The notes below the pieces were generated by a model. That model was not told the DNA's origin. It worked only from the letters and a program-made list of their open reading frames with translations, and searched no databases. Shown here piece by piece: positions 1-44,281 of a stretch of DNA of 44,281 bases (its first letter is position 1; every line of letters starts with the position of its first letter). This DNA is from Escherichia phage UAE_MI-01. A program made the position numbers and the translations under genes. The DNA lies in sequence record MW862804, one strand, 5' to 3'.

Positions 1-280
1 TCTGAAAGACTGGGCTTTGTCCCGCCTGTCCCGATCGGCTAAAACCCGCGGCAGCACTGGCGGGGACAGGGGTGCTGTCCCGCTTTGTCCCGCCTCATTC
101 TGTCCCGCTTTTTGTCCCGCTTAGTTTATGCAATAAAACTGCATAACTATTCACATTTTGGGGGCGGGACAGATCGGGACAGCACCCCTGTCCCGCTTTT
201 AATTTATGCAATTGTGGTGAGTAAATATGCAGTTTTAGAGGTGCGGGACAAAACGGGACGTCCCGCCTGTCCCGCTCCGT
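1..280. repeat. Noncoding module copy A (right part): 13-nt mini-hairpin TCTGAAAGACTGG, array of at least 12 GTCCCGC/GCGGGAC heptamers, palindrome TTATGCA-ataaaac-TGCATAA at 126..146
   Basis: Direct reading; heptamers at 19-25, 77-83, 87-93, 102-108, 114-120, 164-170, 190-196, 243-249, 260-266, 269-275; near-identical to 16698..16850. Confidence 0.85.
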
Positions 281-956
281 TATGCGGGGTTCTGCCGCGC
301 CATTTCATCCAGCGCAACGCGTTCCATTAGCTTGATATATTTAAACGCACGTTGCGCGTTTTCGATGCCGTGCATCTTAAATAGCCATTCCAGTACGCCG
401 TAGTCGATGCCGTATGCGCCGCCGAATCCGGTACGCCATTGCGTGGCGCAATCGGTGAAGACTGCGACTATCTTCGCATTGTCGGGCCATATCGCAACAG
501 GCGGACAAACATCTTCGGGGGCCGCACCCCATAAACTTGCGGCTAAATCTTCGGAGGGTGGCGGCGGGCCATAAAAGCGTCGCGCCGCCTCAATTAGTTT
601 TTTTCACGCAGGCCCATCAGTTCGAGATAGTACGACGTGTGGAACACACCGAACGCGCGAGGGTAGTTAACCACCAGGCGGCGGACGTTCTCCGCGTTAA
701 ATTCATCTGGCAGATTCCAGCCTTCAGCGACGTGCATGATGGCCTCGACCATAACGTTAAATCCTTCCGGGTCGTTGTCGTCGTATTCCGACAGCTTGCG
801 CTCCGTGTCCTGCATGGTCTGCGAAAACTCGTCGATCGGACGGTGGCGTACTGTAAACGTCATTTTTCCCGGTTCGTTCTCACCAGGGCGCGGGATCTCA
901 ATCGGCAGCTTAAAAGTCGGCTTAGGGTCAAGTGTAAAGAGTGGTGCTTTAGCCAT
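280..956 (-). CDS. Tail assembly chaperone, -1 frameshift-extended form (lambda G-T-like fusion)
   Basis: Slippery heptamer A_AAA_AAC (minus strand, plus 597..603) two codons before the G stop; the -1 frame stays open for about 105 further codons to TAA at 280..282; position between major tail protein and TMP. Confidence 0.6.
594..956 (-). CDS. Tail assembly chaperone (lambda gpG-like), short form
   Basis: ATG at 956 with GGAGAA RBS just after a terminator hairpin; acidic small protein directly downstream of major tail protein gene. Confidence 0.6.
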   Translation of the reverse strand: MAKAPLFTLDPKPTFKLPIEIPRPGENEPGKMTFTVRHRPIDEFSQTMQDTERKLSEYDDNDPEGFNVMVEAIMHVAEGWNLPDEFNAENVRRLVVNYPRAFGVFHTSYYLELMGLREKN

Positions 957-5748: not shown

Positions 5749-5903
5749 GCTATCCCCCTGGGATTGTGGCAGAGCAGGCCACCCGCTCGACTTCACGCTT
5801 CTAATATTATCAGCGATAAAAATAATCGCAAAATTCGCTTGCGTTGCGGGAATTGGTTGCGCTATATTGGTTGCACACCAACAGAGATATGAAGGAAAAC
5901 AAG

Positions 5904-12176: not shown

Positions 12177-13319
12177 TTACTTCAACATTTCCGGGCTAAT
12201 GGTTAAGCGTGCAACTTCGCCGTAGTTGGCGCTATAGGTAATGACGTTGGCGCTACGGCCGGACATCCAACCGCCACGACTGGCGTAGGCGTCTTTCGCT
12301 GCGAGCGTCCGGTGCTGTTCAACAATCATATTGCGAGACTCGACAATCTTCTGGTGGTGAAAATGGCCTACGTGCGCGTAGCTGTATTCGCTGGCCCCGA
12401 AAGCCTGTCTGAATTTAGAAATCATGACGGTTTCGATAGCGTCAAAGCGCGCTTTGTGCCCGTGGTGGAAGAATAGCGTGGTCTTACCGTGCTGCACCAT
12501 TTTGTAGACGTCCGGGGACGTATCCACATCGACGCGCGGCTCGTTCTCGTACAGCGTGTTGAACATCTCAGCAAGCCAAATCATGCCCGACTCATCATGA
12601 TTCCCCTGGACGATTAGCAGTTTGACTTTGTGGTGTTTTTGCAGCGCCAGTTCGACGACGTTGCGCACCATGCGAATCATGTAGCGGACAAGTTTCTGAT
12701 ATCGGGTGTCGGCGTCCAGTATGTGACCACTTGCCGGAGTGACAGCATCGAGGCTATCAAAGTGGGCCATATCACCGAGGATATTAATTACGGCAGTGCC
12801 TGCGTCCGGTGCGCGGGCGAAGGCTTCGACAAACCAGCGGTAGAACAGGTCTTCGGCGATCGCCATATCCCAGTCTTCGCCAGTCTCCTCGCCCCAGGCC
12901 AACATTCCCAGGTGGAAGTCTGACACGGTGTACAGGTTGAGCAAGTCGAGCGCCTGGATCGGGACTGGCGGGGCGTTTACTGGCGCTGCCGGTGTGATTT
13001 CGCTGTTCATACCCTCGACAACAGCGCGCATAGCTTCGAGTTGGCGCTCCTTGTCCTGCTCAGTGATAACCCACGACATGACCTCTTCGCCATTGCCGCG
13101 TACCAGGGCCGATACGCGCTTAACACCGAAGCCATCGGCAACGCGCTTGCGGATTACGGCATCGTTGCCGTGTCCAATGCCTTTTTTCGACAGGCGGGCT
13201 TTCCGCATGTAGACGTTTCGGAGGGACAAACCGTACTTCTTAGAAATCTCTTTCGATGTAGCGCCGGATTGTAATTCAGCAATCAATTGCTCGTCTGTGA
13301 TTTTAGTTTGCGGGTGCAT
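12177..13319 (-). CDS. HTH domain fused to calcineurin-like metallophosphoesterase
   Basis: ATG 13319 with AGGAAG RBS; N-terminal HTH-like segment (TSKEISKKYGLSLRNVYMRKARL); phosphoesterase motifs GDMAHFD, GNHD, HGH, GHFHH. Confidence 0.65.
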   Translation of the reverse strand: MHPQTKITDEQLIAELQSGATSKEISKKYGLSLRNVYMRKARLSKKGIGHGNDAVIRKRVADGFGVKRVSALVRGNGEEVMSWVITEQDKERQLEAMRAVVEGMNSEITPAAPVNAPPVPIQALDLLNLYTVSDFHLGMLAWGEETGEDWDMAIAEDLFYRWFVEAFARAPDAGTAVINILGDMAHFDSLDAVTPASGHILDADTRYQKLVRYMIRMVRNVVELALQKHHKVKLLIVQGNHDESGMIWLAEMFNTLYENEPRVDVDTSPDVYKMVQHGKTTLFFHHGHKARFDAIETVMISKFRQAFGASEYSYAHVGHFHHQKIVESRNMIVEQHRTLAAKDAYASRGGWMSGRSANVITYSANYGEVARLTISPEMLK

Positions 13320-16137: not shown

Positions 16138-16443
16138 TTATTTCGCAAGCTGGGCGAATAGTTCGCGCTGGGCTTTAATCCGGGCGACGTTTGTCACTGC
16201 TGTCTCACCGATCCCGAAGCGATACGCCAGGCGCTCGCGGGCAAAAGCCATCGCATATTCGCAGATTGCCACGCGCAGCGGTTCTAGTTCGTCCAGGCTG
16301 GCGAACATATCGTCGAACGCGTGCATGATTCCCTGCTGGGCCAGGATGACAACCTGGCGAGCGTCGTCTGCGTTGCCGTCTGTGTGCTTCGCTTCATACA
16401 GCTTCGCCACCGCCATTGTGTAATTCCAGATTAAAGCTCTCAT
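16138..16443 (-). CDS. Hypothetical protein (first gene of the minus-strand operon)
   Basis: ATG 16443 with AAGAGGA RBS; TTGGTTGC motifs upstream. Confidence 0.45.
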   Translation of the reverse strand: MRALIWNYTMAVAKLYEAKHTDGNADDARQVVILAQQGIMHAFDDMFASLDELEPLRVAICEYAMAFARERLAYRFGIGETAVTNVARIKAQRELFAQLAK

Positions 16444-16659
16444 CGTTCAGTCCTCTTGTTGGTGTGCAACCAAAATAGCAGGGTGCCAGGGTGAATGCAA
16501 CCAATATTAATCACGCGTATGAAAAAGTTGATCGCTATCTGCTGTGACTGCAAACTGCATTTCTCACCCTCCATTCTGCAACTCGCATTGGTTGCCTAGT
16601 TCATCGACGACCGCAATCCGCATCATGCTGCCGTGCGTTATGCAATCCTGGATTTTATG

Positions 16660-16850
16660 CAGTCTCAGACGAGGGGGGTGACAGACCCCCCGTCTAGTCT
16701 GAAAGACTGGGGTTTGTCCCGCTTGTCCCGCCCCCCCCCAGGCCGCGTCATCCGTGGGTGGGACGGGGTGCTGTCCCGCTTTGTCCCGCCCCTGGTCTGT
16801 CCCGCTTTTTGTCCCGCTTAGTTTATGCAGTTTTATTGCATAACTATGCA
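16660..16850. repeat. Noncoding module copy B: hairpin, mini-hairpin, GTCCCGC heptamer array (6-7 copies), C9 homopolymer, palindrome TTATGCA-gttttat-TGCATAA at 16823..16843
   Basis: Direct reading; about 85-90% identical to the junction copy over the conserved core. Confidence 0.85.
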
Positions 16851-16902
16851 CTATATTCACACTACACGGCAACCAATGCGACCGCCTAAAAGCCCATAAA
16901 AT

Positions 16903-16983
16903 GGCAACCAATGCGCGCAAAATTTAATCATTTACCGATATGGGAATTCCCATAACGGCAACCAATGCGCGCAAAATTTAATC
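16903..16983. repeat. Two 27-bp direct repeats GGCAACCAATGCGCGCAAAATTTAATC (16903..16929, 16957..16983) flanking a perfect 16-bp palindrome TATGGGAATTCCCATA (16939..16954); third partial copy at 16868..16882
   Basis: Direct reading; lies at and just beyond the 3' end of the primase gene. Confidence 0.8.
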
Positions 16984-19242
16984 TTTTAAATCGTCATCGG
17001 TCGCTGAAAGCGTGATAGGGATATCCGATTTGATGACCAAATTAGACGACCCATAGATGGCCCCGGTGTGCGGATCGGTATAGAAACCTATCACTCCGCG
17101 CTCCACCATATCGTCGATTGCCTTCGTCGAAGTGCCACCTTTTGCGAGTCCCGCCTGGCGGACGATTGCCGATTTACTGAATCCGGTATGGTCCGGGTTA
17201 TCTTCCATCAGTTTTTCCAGTGCCGCATAAAGCACTTTCTCTTTTTCATTGCGCGGTCCGGCGGTGTTCTCTTCCTTAACTGCGGCCTTGCCTGCTGCCT
17301 TCGCCTGTTCGATGGCGAACGGTGCCAGGGCAACCGGTACAAGATACAGCGTCTCATCGCGCGGGGTGGATGCAATCGGCTTGACGTCCCAACCGGCAAC
17401 CACATCTCCGAAGTCTGGCCCGGTGCTGGTGGACTGGTGTGCCTCGAACGCTTCTGACTTGCGGAGATCCACCTTAACTTTGCACTTGAGCAGGACGAAG
17501 CCGCGCGGCGCTTGCTTGATGCCGTTACGTGACTTTTCGTGATACAGGTTCAATTGTCCGGGCTGGTTGTCGTCCGGCTGTTCCAGGAAGAAAGCGGAAT
17601 CGACAGCACCATGCAGCGCGCCGGACCCGCGTGGGGTTCTGCTGCCGTTTGCACCTTTCGCCGGGTGGTGAATGACGCCCGCACTGCCACCTGTGTTTTC
17701 CGCGATGGCCTTCAGAGCTTTGACCACTTCGCCCATATCGCTGGCGTTGTTCTCGTCGAACGGTTTAGCATCGGCGGACCGCAACGCAACCGTCTGGTTG
17801 AGTGAGTCGAACGCCACCAGGCCAACCGGCTCGCCGTTAGCGGTGCGGTTGATAAAGCTGATAACTTCACGCAAGCCAGATTTGCTGGTGATATCCCAGC
17901 CGCGGGATTGCAGATCGATAATGTGCAGCTTGTCCAGGTCGTGCTCGTATTTAATCTGCAATGCTTCTTTACGCTGGTTGGAGGCTTCACCACCTTCCGC
18001 GTCGAAATAGAAGCAATGAGACTGGACGACCTTCGCACCGCCGAACGGGATCCCTGCGGCAACCGCGCCCATTTGGCCCAGCACATAGAAAGACTTACCG
18101 ATATTCGACTCACCCGCCATGTACCAGGTCGATTTAAAGTTAATCAACCCCTCGATAATCGGGTCGTGCTTACTGAACAGCGCGACCGGCTCGTTATCCA
18201 GATCCGCATCGGTGCACACGCCGTATTCTTCGCCGTCGCCAACCGCATCAACAATATGTTCGTATAAGGATTCGACTTCCTCGTCGTCCAGCCCCGGAAG
18301 GATGGCGGCGATTTGCTTGCGCGACATGTTGTGTGGCTCGACGTTCAGGTGGTCCGGGATCCCGATAAGACGCAGCGCCAGGTGCTGGTGTCTGTTCAGT
18401 TCCGAGCAACACTCGTTGCCGGTGTGCATACACTTGAAACGGATCTCGCCATCCTTGACCATAATGGCGGTGGACCCTTCGCCGCTGTGCAGATGTTCGT
18501 TCGGGCACGGCACTTCATAACCGCGACCGGAAGATAACTCCTCGAATCCTGCCTGGAAGCACCAGTCCAGAATGCCGTCTGCCACTGCGTCGTCGCCCTG
18601 GGTCAGTTCGCGGCGGACTTCCTCTTTCTCAACTCCCAGCTTGTCCGCCAGGCGGAGCAGACGACGGACGCGGGCGCGCTTGCCATAGTGGCATTTAATA
18701 ACAGACTGCTGGTGTGGCAGGTACATCAGGCGGTTTGTGTCTTTCGTGCAGTCGTCGAAGTCCACATCTGACAGGCCCAGTTGGTGTAATAGCGCATACT
18801 GGACACGGCCCAGGTCTTCAGCCGGTACAGGCTTGTCAGTGAGTACCAGGAATCGAGCGCAACGCGTGCCGCCTTTCAGTGGGTGACGGTCGCCGGTTGT
18901 GGTGTGGAAGACGTGCTCCAGCCCCGCGTCAGTGAACGCCTTACGGCAACGGCGTAAAGTGCGGGTGTCGGTGCGGTCAATATCGAAGAACAGGATCGAG
19001 CGGTCCACCGCACTGGTCTTACGACGCAATCCGTCACTGGTATACGCCACGATGCCGTCGGCCTTACGCTTGCGGCGCGCATACTCGGCTTTATCTTCTG
19101 TCTTGTTGATATGCACCGAGGAGATTTCTTTCGCATCTTTGATAAATTCGAAAAATTCATCGGTGGTCATCTGGAAGTTTTCCGCCCTGGCTTTTTCGCC
19201 TTTTTTAGCGGGTCTTGTTACAGCGAATTTAATTAAGCTCAT
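16978..19242 (-). CDS. Bifunctional primase-polymerase / P-loop (RecA/DnaB-like) replicative NTPase
   Basis: 754 aa; N-terminal FFDIDR-type primase-polymerase motif, Cys/His zinc-binding cluster, Walker A GESNIGKS in C-terminal half. Confidence 0.7.
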   Translation of the reverse strand: MSLIKFAVTRPAKKGEKARAENFQMTTDEFFEFIKDAKEISSVHINKTEDKAEYARRKRKADGIVAYTSDGLRRKTSAVDRSILFFDIDRTDTRTLRRCRKAFTDAGLEHVFHTTTGDRHPLKGGTRCARFLVLTDKPVPAEDLGRVQYALLHQLGLSDVDFDDCTKDTNRLMYLPHQQSVIKCHYGKRARVRRLLRLADKLGVEKEEVRRELTQGDDAVADGILDWCFQAGFEELSSGRGYEVPCPNEHLHSGEGSTAIMVKDGEIRFKCMHTGNECCSELNRHQHLALRLIGIPDHLNVEPHNMSRKQIAAILPGLDDEEVESLYEHIVDAVGDGEEYGVCTDADLDNEPVALFSKHDPIIEGLINFKSTWYMAGESNIGKSFYVLGQMGAVAAGIPFGGAKVVQSHCFYFDAEGGEASNQRKEALQIKYEHDLDKLHIIDLQSRGWDITSKSGLREVISFINRTANGEPVGLVAFDSLNQTVALRSADAKPFDENNASDMGEVVKALKAIAENTGGSAGVIHHPAKGANGSRTPRGSGALHGAVDSAFFLEQPDDNQPGQLNLYHEKSRNGIKQAPRGFVLLKCKVKVDLRKSEAFEAHQSTSTGPDFGDVVAGWDVKPIASTPRDETLYLVPVALAPFAIEQAKAAGKAAVKEENTAGPRNEKEKVLYAALEKLMEDNPDHTGFSKSAIVRQAGLAKGGTSTKAIDDMVERGVIGFYTDPHTGAIYGSSNLVIKSDIPITLSATDDDLKD

Positions 19243-19582: not shown

Positions 19583-19759
19583 TGCTCTGCCCTCAGTTGG
19601 TTAATGACCAACGAAACTACACCTAAAACCGAAAGGTGTCAAATCCTTTGGATATTGAAACGGGCGCGCACGCGTGTAATAATAATTCCCGTCTCATTGT
19701 CTCTTATTGGTTAGCGCCGTCGCATTTTGCCTCGGCGCTTTTTTTTTTGAAATTAGTTG

Positions 19760-19788
19760 TTGACTCCCTTCTGCAACCAATCTAATAT
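19760..19788 (+). promoter_or_regulatory. Sigma70-like early promoter (TTGACT-17 bp-TAATAT) with CAACCAAT motif in the spacer and a T10 tract upstream
   Basis: Direct reading of the -35/-10 hexamers and spacing. Confidence 0.55.
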
Positions 19789-19984
19789 TCACTCCGTCGA
19801 CAGGATGCAGGACGCAAACTGGAGAGGGGCAACGCAGGGGCCGGATCGAAGTGTCAGGATTCCCAACCGTGATTATATAACCAGGTCCACTACCCGAAAG
19901 GGAGAACGCGTAACCTGGCAATATGTTAAGGCCACCGACGAAGTTTACTGCCGACACCTAAACTTAACCAATCGGAGATACACC

Positions 19985-20527
19985 ATGTTTGAACAAATCG
20001 TAAACCTGATCACTCGCGGCGTAGTAGCACTGGAAATCATCGCTAAACATTATGAAACCGTTGGCGCTGCCGTAGACCCAAAAGCAAACGGCACTGCTAA
20101 GAAAGGCAAGGCCAAGCCAGATACTGAAGTCGAAGACGACGACGATCAGGACGAAGTCGAAGATACGCCTAAAACGAAAAAAGGCGCGGCAAAAGAAACC
20201 AAGTCTAAAGGTAAGGCCAAAAAAGAAGTCGTAGAAGATGACGACGACGATGACGCCGATGACGTGAAGCCAGCGAAGGGTAAAAAAGCTCCGGCGAAAG
20301 GCAAAGGCAAGAAAGATGCCGATCCGCTGGCAGAGATGCGCGACGAGATCAAACAGTATGCCGCTATTATCGCTGGTGGTGACGACGACGATGCCAACGA
20401 CGAATTCGACGACCTGCTGGAAGCGTTCGAGATCAAATCAATCGCCAAGCTGGAAGATGACGACGTCGAAGACTTCCACAAAGACCTGAAAGAAATCGTC
20501 GAAACCTATTTCGAATTGGAAGATTAA
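19985..20527 (+). CDS. Highly charged early protein with alternating Lys-rich and Asp/Glu-rich blocks
   Basis: ATG 19985 with GGAGAT RBS; first gene of the plus-strand operon; followed by terminator. Confidence 0.55.
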   Translation: MFEQIVNLITRGVVALEIIAKHYETVGAAVDPKANGTAKKGKAKPDTEVEDDDDQDEVEDTPKTKKGAAKETKSKGKAKKEVVEDDDDDDADDVKPAKGKKAPAKGKGKKDADPLAEMRDEIKQYAAIIAGGDDDDANDEFDDLLEAFEIKSIAKLEDDDVEDFHKDLKEIVETYFELED

Positions 20528-22680: not shown

Positions 22681-22770
22681 CCGCTTAGGCGCAACCAAGT
22701 AGATTAGCAACCAAGCCGAACGGGGTGGCTTCCAATAACCCCGATACATGTGAAAATGAGGAATTGGAAA

Positions 22771-23556
22771 ATGGCTAAAGTCAACCTGAAAAATGTGCGC
22801 GTATGTTTCCTGAAAATTTGGGAACGTGATACCCCTAAACAGGACGGACAAAAACCGGCATACCGCGCCGTGATTCTTCTTGATAAAGAAGATCCGCAGG
22901 TGGACAAAGTGGAAGCGGCAGCGCGCGCAGTGCTCACCGACAAGCTGAAATCCGAGAAGAATGCCGATAAGTGGATGGACCGCCACTACGCCCAGGATTC
23001 TAAGGAATGTGCAGTTCGCGACGGCGACGAGCGCGATGAAGTAACCGAAGAATTCGAAGGAATGTTGTACATCAACGCTAAATCGTTCAAACAGCCAAAC
23101 ATCCAAACGTCACTCGGCGAGAAGCAGACCGAACAGGGTCTGACCGTAGAAGGCGACGAAATCGAAGGCCAGGAGATCTACTCCGGTTGTTATTGCAATG
23201 TGTCACTGGATATTTGGGCGTGGAACAACACCAACGGCAAGGGACTCGGTGCTGGACTGCTGGGTTTACGCTTCCGTGATGACGGTGAAGCCTTCGGCGG
23301 TGGCGGATCTTCGTGCTCCGATGAAGACCTGGACAACGACGACGAAGATGAAAGCCCGCGCAAGTCCAAAAAGTCAAAACGTCGTGATGACGATGACGAA
23401 GACGACAAGCCGCGCAAGTCCAAAAAGTCCAAGCGCCGCGATGACGACGATGATGACGAAGACGAGAAACCTCGTAAACGTCGTAAGCCACGCGATGACG
23501 AAGATGATGAGGACGACGACGAAGACGAAGCACCACGCAAACGTCGCCGCCGTTAA
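22771..23556 (+). CDS. ssDNA-binding protein-like (DUF2815-type, putative) with C-terminal basic/acidic repeats
   Basis: ATG 22771 with GAGGAA RBS; synteny between DUF2800-like nuclease and PolA; C-terminus built from 54-63-nt tandem DNA repeats. Confidence 0.4.
   Translation: MAKVNLKNVRVCFLKIWERDTPKQDGQKPAYRAVILLDKEDPQVDKVEAAARAVLTDKLKSEKNADKWMDRHYAQDSKECAVRDGDERDEVTEEFEGMLYINAKSFKQPNIQTSLGEKQTEQGLTVEGDEIEGQEIYSGCYCNVSLDIWAWNNTNGKGLGAGLLGLRFRDDGEAFGGGGSSCSDEDLDNDDEDESPRKSKKSKRRDDDDEDDKPRKSKKSKRRDDDDDDEDEKPRKRRKPRDDEDDEDDDEDEAPRKRRRR
23356..23556 (+). repeat. Imperfect tandem coding repeats (54, 60 and 63 nt) encoding PRKSKKSKRRDDDD(E/D)n units
   Basis: Direct reading. Confidence 0.8.
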
Positions 23557-26073: not shown

Positions 26074-26351
26074 TGACCCCCGAAGGCAAGATCCAAAGTC
26101 ACCTTATGAAGCTGGTGAAAGCCGTCGGCGGATTCTGCCGTAAAGTGGCATGGGAGGGGCGCGCGGGAGCGCCCGACCTTATAATCATCATCAACGGCAA
26201 GATAGTTTTCGTCGAAGTGAAGCGCCCAGGCGGTAAACCTAAGCCGCACCAGGTACGAGAACATGAGCGAATGGCCCGCCGCGGTGCGGACGTTCGCGTC
26301 ATAGACAACATAGCCGACTGTGATTTATTGGTTGCTGAATTGGTCGCGTAG
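26073..26351 (+). CDS. VRR-NUC domain nuclease
   Basis: 92 aa; ...IVFVEVKRPGGKPKPHQ... signature; ATGA coupling to polymerase. Confidence 0.65.
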   Translation: MTPEGKIQSHLMKLVKAVGGFCRKVAWEGRAGAPDLIIIINGKIVFVEVKRPGGKPKPHQVREHERMARRGADVRVIDNIADCDLLVAELVA

Positions 26352-32401: not shown

Positions 32402-34018
32402 TTATTTACCTTCCAGCTTCTCCACTTTATGCAACAGGTGGACGAAGGCGGCACACAGATCCATCAACAGCACGTTACTATCCAAAGACAGCACATCGTC
32501 GGTATACCCGATCTCCTTGCGGTCGACTACAACCTCATTCCCTTCCTCGTCCACCCCCTTGACGTCCTCATAAATGGCGTAACCCGGCAGCAAATGCACG
32601 TATTCTGGGTCGATCCTTGCCAGGTCCTGCGCGATAAGGCCGTATCGCTGTACGTCCGACTCCTTATACTTGAACATTGCCGGAAGCCATTGGCGAACGC
32701 GGTTGTAGCTTTCCTCGCCGTCTGTGTATTGGATTTCTTTTTTAAGGTCGCGGTCCGATAGCGGCGCTTTCTGGAACTCGTTAACCGACGGGTTGCCGCT
32801 GTTACCGCTAATAAGCCTTTGGTCTGGCAAGAAGCGGAATAGCGCCTCAGTCACACCATTCTTCCACACATGGACGCGGTAGTCTGATACGTGTGTATCC
32901 CCACCCCTTACCAGGCCCGCGCGCGTCCAGTCCGCATACCACCTATACATCGTATGCCCAACCCAGCTATCAATCCCGTATAAAGCGTTTGACAGACTTA
33001 GCCCGTTAGCCTCTAGGGGCGCTAACTCTACTGAACTGCCGCCATTCAGGTGCAGCGCACCTAACTTAACTAAACTATCCTCGCCGACCCCAAGATTAGT
33101 GCGCGCAGCGGCTACAGTAGTCGCCCCTGTTCCGCCCTTGGTGATAGGCACTGTGTTCTCCGTAGCGACAGACCCCAAACCTAGATTTGAGCGTGCCGCC
33201 GATTGATCTGCTACGTCTGCCAGGTTCTGAGACGTCTTCATGAATTGCGTAGGGTCGATCGCGTTTTTGAAGTCTTCTGCTTCGTCCCGATACCCTTTCG
33301 CGGCATCTCTGGCGGCTTGCGCGTCAGTCTTCGCCGTATTGGCCTGGTCCCGAATAATGCCGGTATCCGTCCTGATCTGATTCGTCTGGTCCTTGATGGC
33401 TTGCGTATCGGCCTTAATCTGATTCGTCTGCGTCTTGATGGTGTTGGTGGCGTCGTGGATCGCCTGCGTATCGGCCTTGATTTGGTCGGTCTGCGTCTTG
33501 ATGGTATTGGCATCGTTCTTGAAGCCTTCGGCCTCATTGCGAAATCCTTGCGCGGCTGCTTCAGACGCGGCGGCTTGTTGTTGTAGGTTGCGCATCTCCA
33601 CCGGGTCGATCTGCTTCATTAGCTGCGACAGATATCCCCATGACATGCCCTGCATAACCTGCCCGTTAGGTAACGTCACTGTGATTTCTTCAGCGTCGCC
33701 AAAGATTGCACGCCAGTTGTTTTCGTCAGCGATCATCAAGCGCAACGCTTTTTGGGCCTGTACTGTTACGCCCATCGTTGCCAGAGACATGGTATCGCGC
33801 TTAACGCCATCCCACGCGAGGCCAGTTGCCGTGGGGCCGTCGAACGGCAGCACAAGCGTAAGCGCGGTGTCGCTTTCTATGGACGCGATTGCCACGGTGT
33901 ATGGGACTTGCCCTACCACCAACGTTAAGAAGTCGCCAGATGCAAACGCGGTAAACGTCGTGCCTACCCCGACAACCGCCTTGCTGTTATTCGTTACGGA
34001 TAGTGTACCCGCTGCCAT
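32402..34018 (-). CDS. Tail fibre protein with coiled-coil repeats and C-terminal intramolecular chaperone (peptidase S74-like) domain
   Basis: ATG 34018 with GAGGA RBS; repeated IKTQTDQIKADTQAI heptad-like units; C-terminal SDRDLKKEI ... GLIAQDL segment characteristic of auto-cleaving fibre chaperone domains. Confidence 0.65.
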   Translation of the reverse strand: MAAGTLSVTNNSKAVVGVGTTFTAFASGDFLTLVVGQVPYTVAIASIESDTALTLVLPFDGPTATGLAWDGVKRDTMSLATMGVTVQAQKALRLMIADENNWRAIFGDAEEITVTLPNGQVMQGMSWGYLSQLMKQIDPVEMRNLQQQAAASEAAAQGFRNEAEGFKNDANTIKTQTDQIKADTQAIHDATNTIKTQTNQIKADTQAIKDQTNQIRTDTGIIRDQANTAKTDAQAARDAAKGYRDEAEDFKNAIDPTQFMKTSQNLADVADQSAARSNLGLGSVATENTVPITKGGTGATTVAAARTNLGVGEDSLVKLGALHLNGGSSVELAPLEANGLSLSNALYGIDSWVGHTMYRWYADWTRAGLVRGGDTHVSDYRVHVWKNGVTEALFRFLPDQRLISGNSGNPSVNEFQKAPLSDRDLKKEIQYTDGEESYNRVRQWLPAMFKYKESDVQRYGLIAQDLARIDPEYVHLLPGYAIYEDVKGVDEEGNEVVVDRKEIGYTDDVLSLDSNVLLMDLCAAFVHLLHKVEKLEGK

Positions 34019-34098
34019 AGCTGAATCCTCATAAATTGGTTGCAATCCAGGTCGAGCGGTGTAATACTAAAACTCAACCAAATATAGGGGATGATACC

Positions 34099-40903: not shown

Positions 40904-41499
40904 CTTACAAATCCAATAGCAGTCTTAAGGGTGGCGGATACAGTTGCCGTGTGGTGCCCGTTGTCTGTGTATGACAAGCTCGAACGCTCGACCACGAATA
41001 AACCTGTTTCGCCATCCGGGGCGGTGACGACAAACGGCTTGACGAAGTGCCCGCGAAGGAAGTTGTAAACCAGTTTAGGGTTGCACCATTTGTCAGTAGT
41101 CAGTCCGACGAATTGCACAGGGAACTGTTTCGTTTCGGCGTTCGGGCCGTCCGCGATGTTCTGCCCGTAGCCATTACCAAATTGCAATTCCTCCGACCGG
41201 AAAGCCAACTGCACGTCGCCGCCGCCCTGCAATTGCATGTGCCAGTAATAGGGCCATTCGTTTGATCGCGGGTCGTGTGCTTCGATTAGCTCATATGCCG
41301 CACCGGATTTCGTCGGACCGGCCCAGTTATCTTTCAGTGTAATGACCGTGTTCGAGTTGAACGCCGCAATTTTGCCGGTGTAGTCGTTGCCGTCGATGCG
41401 GGCGAATACGAGTACCTTCCCGATCTCGCTAAGGAACGCCGTTCCCGCGCCTGTAACGGTCTTACTTCCTTTCGTTAGTGTGATTGTACCTTGTGACAT
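40900..41499 (-). CDS. Minor tail protein M-like
   Basis: ATG 41499 with GGGGG RBS; synteny directly after TMP. Confidence 0.55.
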   Translation of the reverse strand: MSQGTITLTKGSKTVTGAGTAFLSEIGKVLVFARIDGNDYTGKIAAFNSNTVITLKDNWAGPTKSGAAYELIEAHDPRSNEWPYYWHMQLQGGGDVQLAFRSEELQFGNGYGQNIADGPNAETKQFPVQFVGLTTDKWCNPKLVYNFLRGHFVKPFVVTAPDGETGLFVVERSSLSYTDNGHHTATVSATLKTAIGFVR

Positions 41500-41534: not shown

Positions 41535-44177
41535 TCATCGTTTATAAAGTACACCACCCGGTTTCGTTGCCTTCACGATCTCGGACTTCACCGCCTCGGT
41601 GATCTGCTTGCCGAACGCCTGCGCGGTACGGGGGTCCGGCCCGCTGACACTGGTATCCGTTTTACCGGTACCCGTGTAAACGTTAGTCGTCACGACCATA
41701 CCCCCGCCTGCGCCAGACGCGGCAACGCCCAGTTTCCCGTCCGGCCCGCGCTTCAGTGGCATGATGGCCTCGGGACCAGCCTCGCCCATCAATCCTGCGC
41801 CCTTAGCGAACGCCTGGACGCCATAACTGAAAAAGGTAGGCTGGCTTACCACTTTCCCCGAATAGGCCGCGAGATTGCCTCCTGCGTACGCTCCGCCGTC
41901 CGCATTCTTGGTGAGGCCCGAGAAGATAGCGCCGAACAATCCGTTTTTGCCGCCGTCGCCACCAAAAGCGCTAACGATCGACTTGAAAGCCTGCGAGGTA
42001 GCCAGCTTGATTAATTCGCTCAGGATGGACTTAACCATATCCTTTGCGTTCAGCTTGCCCGTCTCGAAAAACTCGTTCATCGTGTCTTGCATAGCGCTGA
42101 ACGTGAATTTTGTGAGCGTCGTCATCTGCGTATATCCGTTACCCATATCATCCACACTATCCTTAAGCCCGCGGCTGAAGCCATCCCATAGCGAGGCGTT
42201 AGCTCCGGTCTGTGCTTCCTGCACTTCGCGCAGCTTAGACACCGCCTTGTCTATATCGGTATCGTTAGCGCCAACCCGCTTCAGGCGATCAATTAGCTGC
42301 AATTCTTCGCGCAGGTTTGCCGCTTCGCGAGTGGAAAGCGCATACCCCGCGGCGGTGGCTTTTAGTTCGGCGTTCTGGTTCTTAACGAAGGCATCGATCT
42401 GCGCGTGCGCCTTAACCTGCTGCTCTTTCGCATCCAGCAATTTGGCTTCTTCGACGATCTGCTCGCGGACTTCCTTCACGCGCCCGAACTCGACTAATTG
42501 CTGCTTTTCTGCTGCCGTTAGCGCTCTTTCTTTGCTCGCAGCGATTAACTGCTCATTGTCGGCGATCAGCTTGTTTAAGGCCGCTTGAGCGCGTTGCGTG
42601 CGGGTCTGCGTAGACGCGTTGGCTTCGATCTGCTTGCCGGATTCTCGAAGCTGGGCCAGTTCGCTCCGTGCGACTTCCAGCATTTTCATACCGGCATCCA
42701 CGCGAACAGCCGCGGCCTTCTTCGGGGCGGGATCTTTGTAGCGCTCGTTTACCTGCTTCACCGCCTCGGCAAGCTCTTTCTCGTCAATAACGCCACGCTT
42801 ATTCAGCAAATTGAGACGGGCGATCTCGTCGGCGCGCTTCTTCGCGTTAGTTGCGTACTCCTTCTCGAACGCGGCGCGGTCGCGAGCGGTGCGGTTGGCC
42901 TCCTCGTTCGCCTTTGCGGATTCGTCCGCGGCACGGGCGTTGTCGCGCTCCGCACGGTTACGCAGGGTGAGCGACGCCACTACTTTCTCCTGGGCGACCA
43001 GTTCGCTGTAAAGCATGTTAATACGCGCTTTCTGCGCTTCAGTCATTACCCCACCGGCAGCGTTTACCGCTTTCATCTCGGCATAGTAAGCCGTGGTTAG
43101 TCGCTGCAATGACTCACGCGCTTTCATCTCAGATTCATTGGAGGACTGCGCGCGGCCCACATCCAGGATGGCGTCCCACATTGATTTGGCTGCCGATGTG
43201 ACGCCGTTCATCGACCGCTCAAGCGTACCCATGTTGGACTTGATTTCATTGGTCATGCTGGTGAACGACGCAGCGGCTGTTTTGTTAGCCAACGCAACTG
43301 CGTCTGTCTCACGACCCGCATCAACGAGCGACTGTACCTGCTGGATCTGCGCTTCGTTTACGACGTGATACTTATCCGCCAGCGCACGCAGTCCGCCAAC
43401 GGGGTCGGTTGACAGCTTCGCCACAGCCGCTACCACATCCTCGATCGGCTGGCTGGACACCTTCGCGAAGTCATTCACTACCTTAGCCAATGCGCCGAAG
43501 TCACCACCCGCTTTCACACCTGCCGCCGCCAGCGCCTGGATTGTGTCACGCGTCTTGCGAAATGACCCGCCCATGCGCTCGGCGTTCTCGGACAGCACCA
43601 GGATCTGGTTAGCGGTGAGGCCGGAGATATTACCAGACAGCGCCAGCGTCTTGTTAAGCGCTGCCACCTGGTTCTCTGCTCGGGACGTAATTGCCACGCC
43701 CACGCCTAAAGTCGCCGTTACAGCGGTGAGGCCGATCCCTACGGGGCCGAGGAAGCCCGCAACATACCGAAGCGTGTTACCCAGTCCGCCAAATGCGCCG
43801 GTTAGCTGTGGTAACTGCTGAAGCATGACGCGGTGCACCGGCATACCCATCTCAAGCGTAACCGCGATATCCTGTAACTGGAATGCGGCGTTACGCGAGG
43901 CAAAGCCCAAGTTTTTTGTCGACATGCCTAATCGGCTGGCGAGTCGCTCCTGTTTCGTCATGCCGTCGGCGGCGCGCTGCGATTCAGTCGCTAACTTTTC
44001 CATTCCGCCCGCGGCGTCGCCAGTAACCTTTTTCGACTTGCCGAGTGTGTCGTTTAATTTTTTTACTTTCTGTTCTGTGTTCTCGGATTTCTGCGCAAAT
44101 GTGTCCAGCACAGTATTAGCCGTTTTAATTTGCGCGACGTCCGCCTTGAGCGTGATGCCCGCTGCCTGATCTGCCAT
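41535..44177 (-). CDS. Tail tape measure protein
   Basis: 880 aa, Ala/Gln/Lys-rich predicted coiled coil with Gly-rich hydrophobic segments near N-terminus; follows chaperone genes across the window junction. Confidence 0.85.
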   Translation of the reverse strand: MADQAAGITLKADVAQIKTANTVLDTFAQKSENTEQKVKKLNDTLGKSKKVTGDAAGGMEKLATESQRAADGMTKQERLASRLGMSTKNLGFASRNAAFQLQDIAVTLEMGMPVHRVMLQQLPQLTGAFGGLGNTLRYVAGFLGPVGIGLTAVTATLGVGVAITSRAENQVAALNKTLALSGNISGLTANQILVLSENAERMGGSFRKTRDTIQALAAAGVKAGGDFGALAKVVNDFAKVSSQPIEDVVAAVAKLSTDPVGGLRALADKYHVVNEAQIQQVQSLVDAGRETDAVALANKTAAASFTSMTNEIKSNMGTLERSMNGVTSAAKSMWDAILDVGRAQSSNESEMKARESLQRLTTAYYAEMKAVNAAGGVMTEAQKARINMLYSELVAQEKVVASLTLRNRAERDNARAADESAKANEEANRTARDRAAFEKEYATNAKKRADEIARLNLLNKRGVIDEKELAEAVKQVNERYKDPAPKKAAAVRVDAGMKMLEVARSELAQLRESGKQIEANASTQTRTQRAQAALNKLIADNEQLIAASKERALTAAEKQQLVEFGRVKEVREQIVEEAKLLDAKEQQVKAHAQIDAFVKNQNAELKATAAGYALSTREAANLREELQLIDRLKRVGANDTDIDKAVSKLREVQEAQTGANASLWDGFSRGLKDSVDDMGNGYTQMTTLTKFTFSAMQDTMNEFFETGKLNAKDMVKSILSELIKLATSQAFKSIVSAFGGDGGKNGLFGAIFSGLTKNADGGAYAGGNLAAYSGKVVSQPTFFSYGVQAFAKGAGLMGEAGPEAIMPLKRGPDGKLGVAASGAGGGMVVTTNVYTGTGKTDTSVSGPDPRTAQAFGKQITEAVKSEIVKATKPGGVLYKR

Positions 44178-44245
44178 TATGCAGTCCCCCTTTTTATGCA
44201 GTTGCCGTCGGTTATTGTATCAGCGAATTTAAAACAAACCTTATT

Positions 44246-44281
44246 CAGTCTCAGACGAGGGGGGCCATTGACCCCGTCTAG
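44246..44281. repeat. Noncoding module copy A (left part): conserved hairpin CAGTCTCAGACGAGGGGGG-loop-CCCCGTCTAG, continuous with window position 1
   Basis: Matches 16660..16697 (same stem, different loop); window end plus window start reproduces the contiguous internal copy. Confidence 0.85.

Follow-up and report, generated by a model that had tools for sequence, protein, structure and literature searches.

The sequence analyzed here, called the window throughout, is the 44,281-bp record MW862804 of Escherichia phage UAE_MI-01. It is the complete genome of a Dhillonvirus (SO-1/HK578-like), a member of a group of virulent siphoviruses of Escherichia coli, and it matches many database phages at 92 to 93% identity over 12 kb. 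At two loci, it carries copies of one noncoding module made up of a hairpin, an array of GTCCCGC heptamers, and a palindrome. Copy B (16655 to 16860) lies between the helicase-primase gene and the block of small, lysis, terminase, and head genes. Copy A (~44241 to 44281 plus 1 to 160) lies between the tail-chaperone genes and the gene for the tape measure protein (TMP) and spans the window junction, such that the cut point of the record falls inside it. A preliminary description, made from the letters of this DNA, had reported two copies at these positions, with the blocks in the order hairpin, heptamers, and palindrome TTATGCA-N7-TGCATAA, and all of this held when the copies were aligned, with slightly wider coordinates. 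The copies are co-linear, with 159 identical columns of ~200 (~79%), and they are direct repeats, pointing the same way, 16.7 kb apart. The positions of the features discussed below are collected in Table 1.

GTCCCGC occurs exactly 22 times in the window, against 9.5 expected, a count reached in none of 100 shuffled sequences, and 16 of the 22 copies lie inside the modules (10 in 19 to 275 and 6 in 16716 to 16817). The clusters of heptamers reported earlier are therefore present as such, while the real repeat unit is the longer, GC-rich TGTCCCGC, arranged as doublets 9 to 12 bp apart. Both modules contain an array of at least three short direct repeats: seven sites in B (six exact and one degenerate) and, at up to one mismatch, 13 heptamer-like sites in the gap that holds A, two inverted clusters included, or 14 when GTCCCCC at 44184 is counted. 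These GC-rich arrays (20 to 33% AT) abut islands of 40 to 50 bp with 70 to 73% AT in both modules, the 99th percentile of the genome being 67% (30-bp windows). An AT-rich stretch thus adjoins each array, and the island is a predicted DNA-unwinding element. TTATGCA, the word that forms the palindrome arm, reaches 18 copies in the window where 5.4 would be expected, with clusters in both modules. Folded as a hairpin, the B palindrome has a z score of −3.7.

At the other end of the module, what had been described as a hairpin with a separate mini-hairpin is present, but it folds best as one extended imperfect hairpin of ~50 nt, with AGTCTCAGACGAGGGGGG as its left arm and CCCCCCGTCTAGTCTGAAAGACT as its right arm. 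Folded as DNA, the B hairpin reaches −15.7 kcal/mol on the plus strand and −15.1 on the minus strand (z scores, −3.8 and −4.2), and the A hairpin reaches −13.6 and −12.1 kcal/mol (z scores, −4.0 and −3.5). The hairpin stems, the AGTCT/AGACT arms, and the heptamers do not vary among nine A copies and 15 B copies, and the 7-nt loop is hypervariable. The stems are also unchanged, with zero compensatory changes, in a lineage whose helicase-primase is 68% identical. The fact that the sequence of the stems, and not their pairing alone, has been kept in this lineage of 59 to 68% protein identity points to sequence-specific recognition of a structured site, comparable to the recognition of ssiA/ssiB by RepB' (PMC8567376).

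The sequence between the blocks had been said to diverge, which requires an exception for the palindrome spacer: ATAAAAC in A and GTTTTAT in B are exact inverses. Across phages, the arms of the B palindrome are invariant and its spacer is solely GTTTTAT or ATAAAAC, with no intermediates. The distribution of the two forms needs at least four flips on a flank-based tree of 15 copies (loci L001, L005, L007, L008, L010, L012 to L018, L020, L022, and L024). Inversion of the spacer as a unit suggests hairpin-templated strand switching at a palindrome that is often single-stranded in vivo; repeated flips without intermediates would be expected if this AT-rich sequence were often single-stranded or extruded. 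A corresponding flip of the hairpin loop between the copies was considered and rejected, as the loops are not mirror images and the palindrome spacer alone is. In most other phages, the right arm of the A palindrome is degenerate, and the perfect A palindrome of the window looks like a conversion from a B-type copy. Identical loop and spacer variants turn up in A and B of different phages, implying that the copies exchange sequence. The recurrent inversion of the whole spacer is a small, clean natural record of hairpin-mediated inversion.

The preliminary description had proposed a check on conservation among phage genomes, and both modules proved to be kept in essentially all 157 Dhillonvirus records. 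Module A is at least 80% covered in 151 of them, the remainder being records broken there. It is also larger than first described, filling the 383-bp gap between the stop codon of a gp16-like gene (280) and the TMP start (44177), and module B is embedded in a noncoding region of 416 to 534 bp that contains a second repeat family, GGCAACCAAT. Open reading frames (ORFs) have been annotated across B, among them gp50 and gp51 of phage StarDew. Because one-base indels and changes in loop length break the frame among close relatives, these and similar ORFs are probably spurious. Assemblies tend to break in regions A and B, and ORFs called across either should be viewed with corresponding caution. 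Judged from the alignments, the entire noncoding region is under constraint, and the module is real, strongly conserved, and very probably functional.

The gene that ends beside module B (at 16978) encodes a helicase-primase with a DNA-binding domain, which places a candidate initiator directly next to the site. Its N-terminal archaeo-eukaryotic primase (AEP) domain has an invariant D87xD89 and a nearly invariant H120 and is followed by a zinc motif (C246, H252, C271, and H273), a RepA-type helicase at residues 357 to 531, and a winged helix at residues ~666 to 737, predicted with pLDDT values of 80 to 91. AAA_25 (RepA-family) was the sole Pfam match, and the domain make-up was assigned from fold and profile. 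A PDB sequence search with the protein found nothing at an E value of ≤0.1, and the top structural matches of the winged helix were generic winged-helix proteins, the origin-binding domain of P4 alpha (1KA8) not being among them. The gene is mosaic: in phage CHD5UKE2 (L005, 17928 to 20189), the first ~200 residues (AEP) are 42 to 74% identical to those of the window and the other 550 are 90 to 100% identical, a step that implies intragenic recombination.

Downstream of the helicase-primase gene, the noncoding region is syntenic across lineages, with a change of the repeat word. In the metagenomic contigs L031 and L034 (helicase-primase, 68% identical), the word is GCGGGACA, the hairpin is the same, and a second copy lies just upstream of the TMP gene; in L034, this second copy is a GTCCCG(C) module and matches the B copy there at 76% identity across 212 bp. 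Two contigs with 48% identity, L032 and L033, have TCGCAA/TTGCGA and (C)TCGCAA, respectively, each with a different hairpin. No second copy was seen in the part covered by the L032 contig; in L033, one that aligns block-wise with the first lies directly past a Mu-F-like head gene. L035 and L036 (46%) have GGGAT(C/A) clusters (GGGATC in L036) and a second copy upstream of the TMP gene, which is the weakest case, as it rests on shared short motifs. Salmonella phage SE1 (44%) has TCTCCCC and no second copy in its full genome. A plan is thus conserved as far as these sequences go: the helicase-primase gene is followed by a repeat array and a hairpin, and the late genes usually contain a second copy, while the repeat word has been replaced. 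Relatives in Kagunavirus and Jerseyvirus were uninformative, as their genes are ordered differently and the helicase-primase gene is not followed by a long noncoding region of this kind. In a plasmid collection, there was no DNA match to module B, and the sole full-length relative of the helicase-primase (34% identity) was encoded by CP088689.1, a 44,086-bp E. coli "plasmid" that is phage-like and probably a Kagunavirus-like genome, which leaves no plasmid replicon as a source of functional evidence. The noncoding DNA downstream of module B in L031 also contains a (CACACG)n microsatellite (12590 to 12613).

Among six helicase-primases, no domain diverges more than the winged helix, whose similarity between proteins goes with repeat type. 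Identity in this domain is 0.53 to 0.61 between proteins with the same repeat and 0.25 to 0.35 for most pairs with different repeats, against 0.60 to 0.76 in the helicase core. In P0017 and SE1, which form the closest pair whose repeats differ, identity is 0.83 in the AEP domain and 0.55 in the winged helix. Repeat type is also matched by variation in the small helix-turn-helix (HTH) protein of the gene just upstream (82% identity for the window versus L031 and 32% for L036 versus SE1), so that both proteins stay in contention as the binder of the arrays. The parsimonious pairing, we infer, would match the winged helix to the two-site heptamer arrays and the HTH protein to the dispersed GGCAACCAAT/ATTGGTTGC motif, which is found throughout the genome within promoter-like sites or next to them, the early promoter region adjoining the HTH gene being one such place. 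The link of the type-2 motif (GGCAACCAAT) to the HTH protein through early promoters holds in the GTCCCGC lineage only. The joint replacement of repeat and winged helix across lineages offers a natural series for the study of changes in specificity.

Seeking to account for these observations, we favor the reading that B is an iteron-type replication origin and A a duplicated second site for the initiator, as in SPP1 oriL/oriR or P4 ori/crr, and we regard this as about evenly poised between right and wrong. An origin was also one of the candidate roles in the preliminary description, and it is the one that the evidence favors. Heptamer arrays, an island whose AT content ranks in the genome's top 1%, and a conserved hairpin together make up the typical anatomy of an iteron origin; B directly adjoins the 3' end of a gene whose product has primase, helicase, and winged-helix domains; syntenic arrays and the two-copy plan recur with lineage-specific repeats; the palindrome spacer flips repeatedly as a unit; the divergence of the winged helix tracks the repeat type; and the modules lack a promoter or terminator consensus and an Rfam family. 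The precedent of SPP1 points the same way.

If this reading is correct, the early operon would make the small HTH protein and the 754-aa multifunctional replication protein, whose winged helix would bind the TGTCCCGC doublets. The bound protein might then oligomerize on the GC-rich array and melt the adjoining AT-rich palindrome. Helicase would be loaded, and the exposed hairpin of ~50 nt could serve the AEP primase as a structured priming or assembly signal, much as ssiA/ssiB serve RepB' of RSF1010 or as the stem-loop downstream of orf904 does in pRN1. Module A could be a second origin, could cooperate with B by looping, as P4 ori does with crr, or could form a protein-DNA barrier at which stalled forks switch to the synthesis of concatemers for headful packaging, as proposed for SPP1 oriR.

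Several observations weigh against an origin. GC skew follows gene orientation and gives no signal at A or B. Both copies, and those of L033, share the direction of the late genes around them and stand at the heads of gene blocks, a placement that also fits a role linked to transcription. SE1 manages with a single array. The heptamer columns are only modestly more conserved than the remaining noncoding DNA (0.78 to 0.80 invariant against 0.66 to 0.71 of other noncoding columns). As the HTH protein co-varies too, the binder of the arrays could be a transcription factor. Finally, the orientation pattern of the 8-mer ACGGCAGC shows no switch at A or B. This word, with 24 sites in the genome against 2.5 expected (0 of 100 shuffles; e.g., 1674, 5293, 16627, 26532, 38265, and 42511), may be a Chi-like signal or a site recognized by the primase. 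Its consensus does not extend beyond the 8 nt, and all three reading frames contain it. From 39.8 kb through the junction to 20.1 kb, 15 of 16 sites are on the minus strand, and between 26.5 and 38.3 kb, 6 of 8 are on the plus strand. It is abundant too in SO-1, CHD5UKE2, SE1, and L032, which include lineages with different iterons, and a copy or variant stands beside the arrays.

The placement at the heads of gene blocks raises a second explanation, that the arrays control transcription of the late genes and are bound by the 109-aa HTH protein or by a 400-aa HTH-phosphoesterase. The preliminary description had put its emphasis here, on an array for a late promoter, activator, or antiterminator. 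Coated in this way, the arrays could switch on promoters of the tail block (from A) and of the lysis/packaging/head block (from B), or they could keep early and late transcription apart as an insulator or roadblock, and the hairpin could work in RNA as an antiterminator, a processing site, or a 5' stabilizer. Both copies precede gene blocks in the orientation of the genes, as does the second copy of L033, and the small HTH protein co-varies with repeat type. Fixed stems with a variable loop are also found in lambda nut boxB and in HK022 put. After gp16, an inverted heptamer pair, CGGGAC/GTCCCG, is followed by TTTT on the minus strand; it is the sole TTTT-tailed hairpin and corresponds to the rho-independent terminator annotated in HK578. 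Together with TGATACAAT before TMP, a putative promoter element conserved in eight of the eight relatives that cover it, this pair implies that A may separate two transcription units.

The emphasis of the preliminary description is not supported, and the duplicated core itself speaks against this explanation. A promoter scan found no sigma-70-like site in 16562 to 16977 or in 1 to 500, a terminator scan of both modules found no canonical terminator in the cores, and a scan of the whole window against Rfam 15 at the gathering threshold returned zero matches. A T run is lacking on both strands of the main hairpin, which thus differs from an intrinsic terminator, a GC-rich hairpin with a U tract. 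On the B side, the promoter-like element, TTGCAT-N17-TATTTT, lies outside the duplicated core, ~150 bp nearer 16443, and carries a different genome-wide motif, the dispersed ATTGGTTGCA; the heptamer occurs at no other promoter of the genome. Arrays of 7 to 13 sites joined to an AT-rich island are unusual for activators and are normal for origins, and the stem sequence is itself invariant in the lineage of 59 to 68% identity, with no compensatory changes. We therefore consider control of transcription unlikely as the function of the arrays.

The dispersed motif is of interest in its own right. ATTGGTTGCA precedes good −10 boxes at 26327 and 29269 and, at 19773, lies in the opposite orientation inside the spacer of a plus-strand early promoter. 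In the form ATTGGTTGC(A), equal to GCAACCAAT, it has 24 sites at up to one mismatch against 12.3 expected, with sites at 5852, 5866, 16466, 16497, 16587, 16869, 16904, 16958, 19773, 26327, 29269, 29286, 31191, and 34035. At several intergenic sites, it provides a TTGCAx −35 box 16 to 17 nt upstream of a good −10 box (29269, TTGCAT-N17-TATATT; 26327, TTGCTG-N17-TATAGT; 16505 on the minus strand, TTGCAT-N17-TATTTT), and at 19773, it falls within the spacer of the early promoter TTGACT-N17-TAATAT. To judge by these positions, ATTGGTTGC is probably a phage promoter or operator motif.

A combination of the two roles is conceivable, in which the modules couple late gene expression, or the switch to concatemers, to replication and have been purposely placed at the heads of both late blocks. 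A replication fork, or helicase-primase loaded at the arrays, might clear a protein roadblock or activate weak promoters nearby. If true, this would amount to a replication-licensed late switch in a phage with no known late sigma factor or activator, would reconcile the late-block position with the origin-like anatomy, and would explain why unrelated lineages keep second copies in their late operons in the orientation of the genes. We regard such coupling as distinctly unlikely.

It is also improbable, in our judgment, that the hairpin functions as RNA, for example, as an RNase III site or a stabilizer in minus-strand late transcripts, with the arrays separate or accessory. On the transcribed (minus) strand, folding with DNA parameters gives a stable hairpin (z scores of −3.5 to −4.2), its stems are fixed while its loop varies, and the starts that follow it are 76 nt (TMP), 107 nt (the small ORF at 16561), and ~225 nt (the first large ORF, at 16443) downstream. 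However, stems that never vary make covariation unavailable, there is no Rfam match, and an RNA function would leave unexplained the co-duplicated arrays, the AT-rich island, and the joint replacement of repeat and hairpin in relatives. We think it very improbable that the duplicated module lacks a phage function and is simply a selfish or neutral intergenic element. The visible exchange between copies (shared loop and spacer variants and a B-like A palindrome) would suit such an element, but both copies occur in essentially all 157 genomes and persist in the lineage of 59 to 68% protein identity, and the two-copy plan recurs with unrelated repeats in other lineages.

Short repeat arrays are known from pac and cosB sites (SPP1 pacL/pacR, P1 pac, and lambda cosB). 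The least probable explanation of all, a role in packaging as pac or cos sites bound by the small terminase, which was also among the roles first proposed, can cite the resemblance of the module arrays to these and the break of several records, the window included, inside region A, but it conflicts with the headful type of the terminase (TerS is P22/Sf6 gp3-like and TerL is Terminase_6), with the distance of terS from B (4.4 kb) and from A (11.5 kb) when pac is usually in or beside terS, with the sub-genomic packaging that two cos sites 16.7 kb apart would entail, with record breaks that differ (window positions 44251, 44272, 1, 69, and 392, e.g., PNS1, Maverick, and Kente), with a break of the window within a stretch exactly common to A and B, and with the headful packaging predicted by PhageTerm for the relative Opt-212 (PMC9022532). 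The window break was rejected as a physical terminus, as other records break elsewhere in A and the ends of CHD5UKE2 (L005, NC_073059.1) look assembler-made: ~126 bp are duplicated at both ends, in what looks like an uncorrected assembler overlap. The one published cos claim, for phage EE09 (ATCTTAAGGG), was likewise rejected, its best match, with one mismatch, being at 40922, away from the modules.

The duplicated module is not new, as it is already marked in a database record. In GenBank GQ502199 (Sodalis phage SO-1, with a genome 87 to 88% identical), the same two loci carry the labels "region A" and "region B" as repeat regions; the note there, which is a GenBank annotation only, records that the two are similar to each other, lists repeats of the direct, inverted, and palindromic kinds, and introduces a proposed role with "possible." HK578 and some German isolates have a terminator annotated in region A, and two Danish phages have an annotated repeat region. 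Literature searches for Dhillonvirus origins and repeats and for the SO-1 paper found no description or test of regions A and B. With these records and the parallel to SPP1 oriL/oriR (PMC6316719), the statement of the preliminary description that the architecture was undescribed proved too strong.

Table 1. Positions of the modules' parts, their flanks, and neighboring genes in the window
Feature	Position	Strand	Description
Hairpin, module B	16661..16708		AGTCTCAGACGAGGGGGG / loop TGACAGA / CCCCCCGTCTAGTCTGAAAGACT; includes the mini-hairpin of the preliminary description
Hairpin, module A	44247..44281, on into 1-11		Left arm, loop, and most of right arm before the junction
Iteron array, module B	16716..16817	plus	Six exact GTCCCGC in doublets 16716/16725, 16773/16783, and 16799/16811; degenerate inverted copy at 16758
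Iteron array, module A	1..120	plus	GTCCCGC at 19, 77, 87, 102, and 114; GTCCCGA at 28; hairpin end at 1-11
AT-rich island, module B	16815..16860		70-73% AT; palindrome TTATGCA-GTTTTAT-TGCATAA (16823-16843); candidate DNA-unwinding element
AT-rich island, module A	118..150		73% AT; palindrome TTATGCA-ATAAAAC-TGCATAA (126-146)
Module A extension, absent from B	160..279		Heptamer clusters, inverted/direct (164-196, 243-275), around AT-rich stretch 197-235 (TTATGCA at 204)
B flank, type-2 repeats	16869..16966	plus	Three GGCAACCAAT repeats directly past the helicase-primase stop codon
Tandem duplication, 54 bp	16900-16988		Present in some phages, absent in others; holds 16-bp perfect palindrome TATGGGAATTCCCATA (16939-16954)
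B flank, TTATGCA pair	16638..16661	plus	Two direct TTATGCA 17 bp apart; ACGGCAGC adjoining at 16627-16634 (minus)
Candidate sigma-70-type promoter	16472..16505	minus	ATTGGTTGCAT (−35 TTGCAT), 17-nt spacer, −10 TATTTT; for the first large ORF after B (16443)
TMP leader	44177..44222	minus	Two TTATGCA 17 bp apart (44177, 44194); candidate extended −10 TGATACAAT (44214-44222)
Helicase-primase, 754 aa	16978..19242	minus	AEP primase, zinc motif, RepA-type helicase, C-terminal winged helix; candidate initiator for the heptamers
Small HTH protein, 109 aa	19253..19582	minus	HTH_23 / Sigma70_r4_2 matches; just upstream of helicase-primase; alternative binder of arrays or type-2 repeats
Gene run	19582 -> 280	minus	Small HTH protein, helicase-primase, small genes, lysis, HTH-phosphoesterase, TerS, TerL, portal, head, tail tube, tail chaperones
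Gene run past the junction	44177 -> 32402	minus	TMP, tail tip, fibers
Replication genes	19757 -> 32374	plus	

Some features of the genome away from the modules were recorded as well. The gp16-like DUF1799 frame (280 to 597, minus strand) has no separate start codon, and it overlaps the gp15-like tail-chaperone gene (594 to 956, minus strand) at the latter's end, an arrangement that fits a programmed frameshift product of the lambda G/G-T type. Two plus-strand early ORFs (19757 to 20527 and 22750 to 23556) contain GAC/GAT/GAA-rich repeat runs (20102 to 20473 and 23336 to 23546; families D1, D3, D4, D8, and D9), which in both ORFs encode highly acidic stretches interspersed with K/R-rich ones. 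Five copies of a 21/42-nt periodic repeat (33363 to 33530) lie inside a 547-aa minus-strand ORF (32402 to 34045) that matches by position the gene annotated as tail fiber in SO-1. Some Dhillonvirus records carry Acinetobacter or Campylobacter phage labels (e.g., OQ221563.1).

Dhillonviruses are common and much-used coliphages (the BASEL collection, defense-system screens, and therapy candidates) whose replication origin and late-gene control are undescribed, and module B offers a candidate origin together with a likely initiator domain. If the assignment of B as origin and A as its second site is true, these phages would provide a second example, in phages of Gram-negative hosts, of an SPP1-style origin with a copy in the late region, a plan linked to the theta-to-sigma switch.

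Membership by homology in the SPP1, P4, pRN1, or IncQ families is not established, and the parallels are instructive as analogies. ORF904 of pRN1 combines a prim-pol, a helicase, and a C-terminal winged helix, with a gene for a small DNA-binding repressor before it; an essential stem-loop origin just downstream of orf904 has been shown experimentally and was also proposed for Bordetella phage BIP-1 (PMC4234260). The dhillonvirus locus is like pRN1 in its AEP/helicase/winged-helix protein, in the gene for a small DNA-binding protein upstream, and in the stem-loop downstream. It is unlike pRN1 in that the latter has an SF3 helicase and no iterons, whereas the phage has a RecA/RepA-type helicase and prominent iteron arrays. 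With IncQ plasmid RSF1010, it shares a RepB'-like AEP primase and a RepA-family helicase, a DNA-binding domain standing in the place of RepC. However, the three functions are separate in RSF1010 and fused here, there is no sequence similarity between the sites, and RSF1010 has two ssi hairpins on opposite strands per origin where the phage has one extended hairpin per module.

In P4, octamer iterons, TGTTCACC, form two separate clusters, ori and crr, both of which are required in cis. The helicase of P4 alpha is of the SF3 type and that of the dhillonvirus protein is RepA/AAA_25, and the P4 primase is of the Toprim type, in contrast to the AEP fold found here, with its invariant DxD and nearly invariant H120. 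The C-terminal winged helix of P4 alpha binds the origin repeats (PMC4234260), and the dhillonvirus protein is likewise a multifunctional primase-helicase with a C-terminal winged helix.

SPP1 is the closest functional parallel. It has two similar origins, each combining direct repeats with an AT-rich unwinding element, and 13 kb separates them on the circle; oriL is inside the initiator gene, 38, and oriR occupies a noncoding stretch that breaks into the conserved order of the late structural genes, where gp38 has been proposed to stall forks and so bring about the theta-to-sigma switch (PMC6316719, PMC3485210). SPP1 differs in using an origin-binding protein, a loader, a DnaB-type helicase, and host primase where the dhillonviruses have a single AEP/RepA-type/winged-helix protein, in having oriL within gene 38 where B is downstream of the gene, and in that no long hairpin has been described for it. 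Binding and function have been shown experimentally for SPP1, and their dhillonvirus counterparts are predicted from comparison of sequences. SPP1 oriR follows gene 7, a spot equivalent to that of the second copy in L033. In both cases, a headful-packaging siphovirus of ~44 kb has two modules of repeats and AT-rich DNA, one with the initiator gene and one with the late genes, 13 kb apart in SPP1 and 16.7 kb apart in the window.

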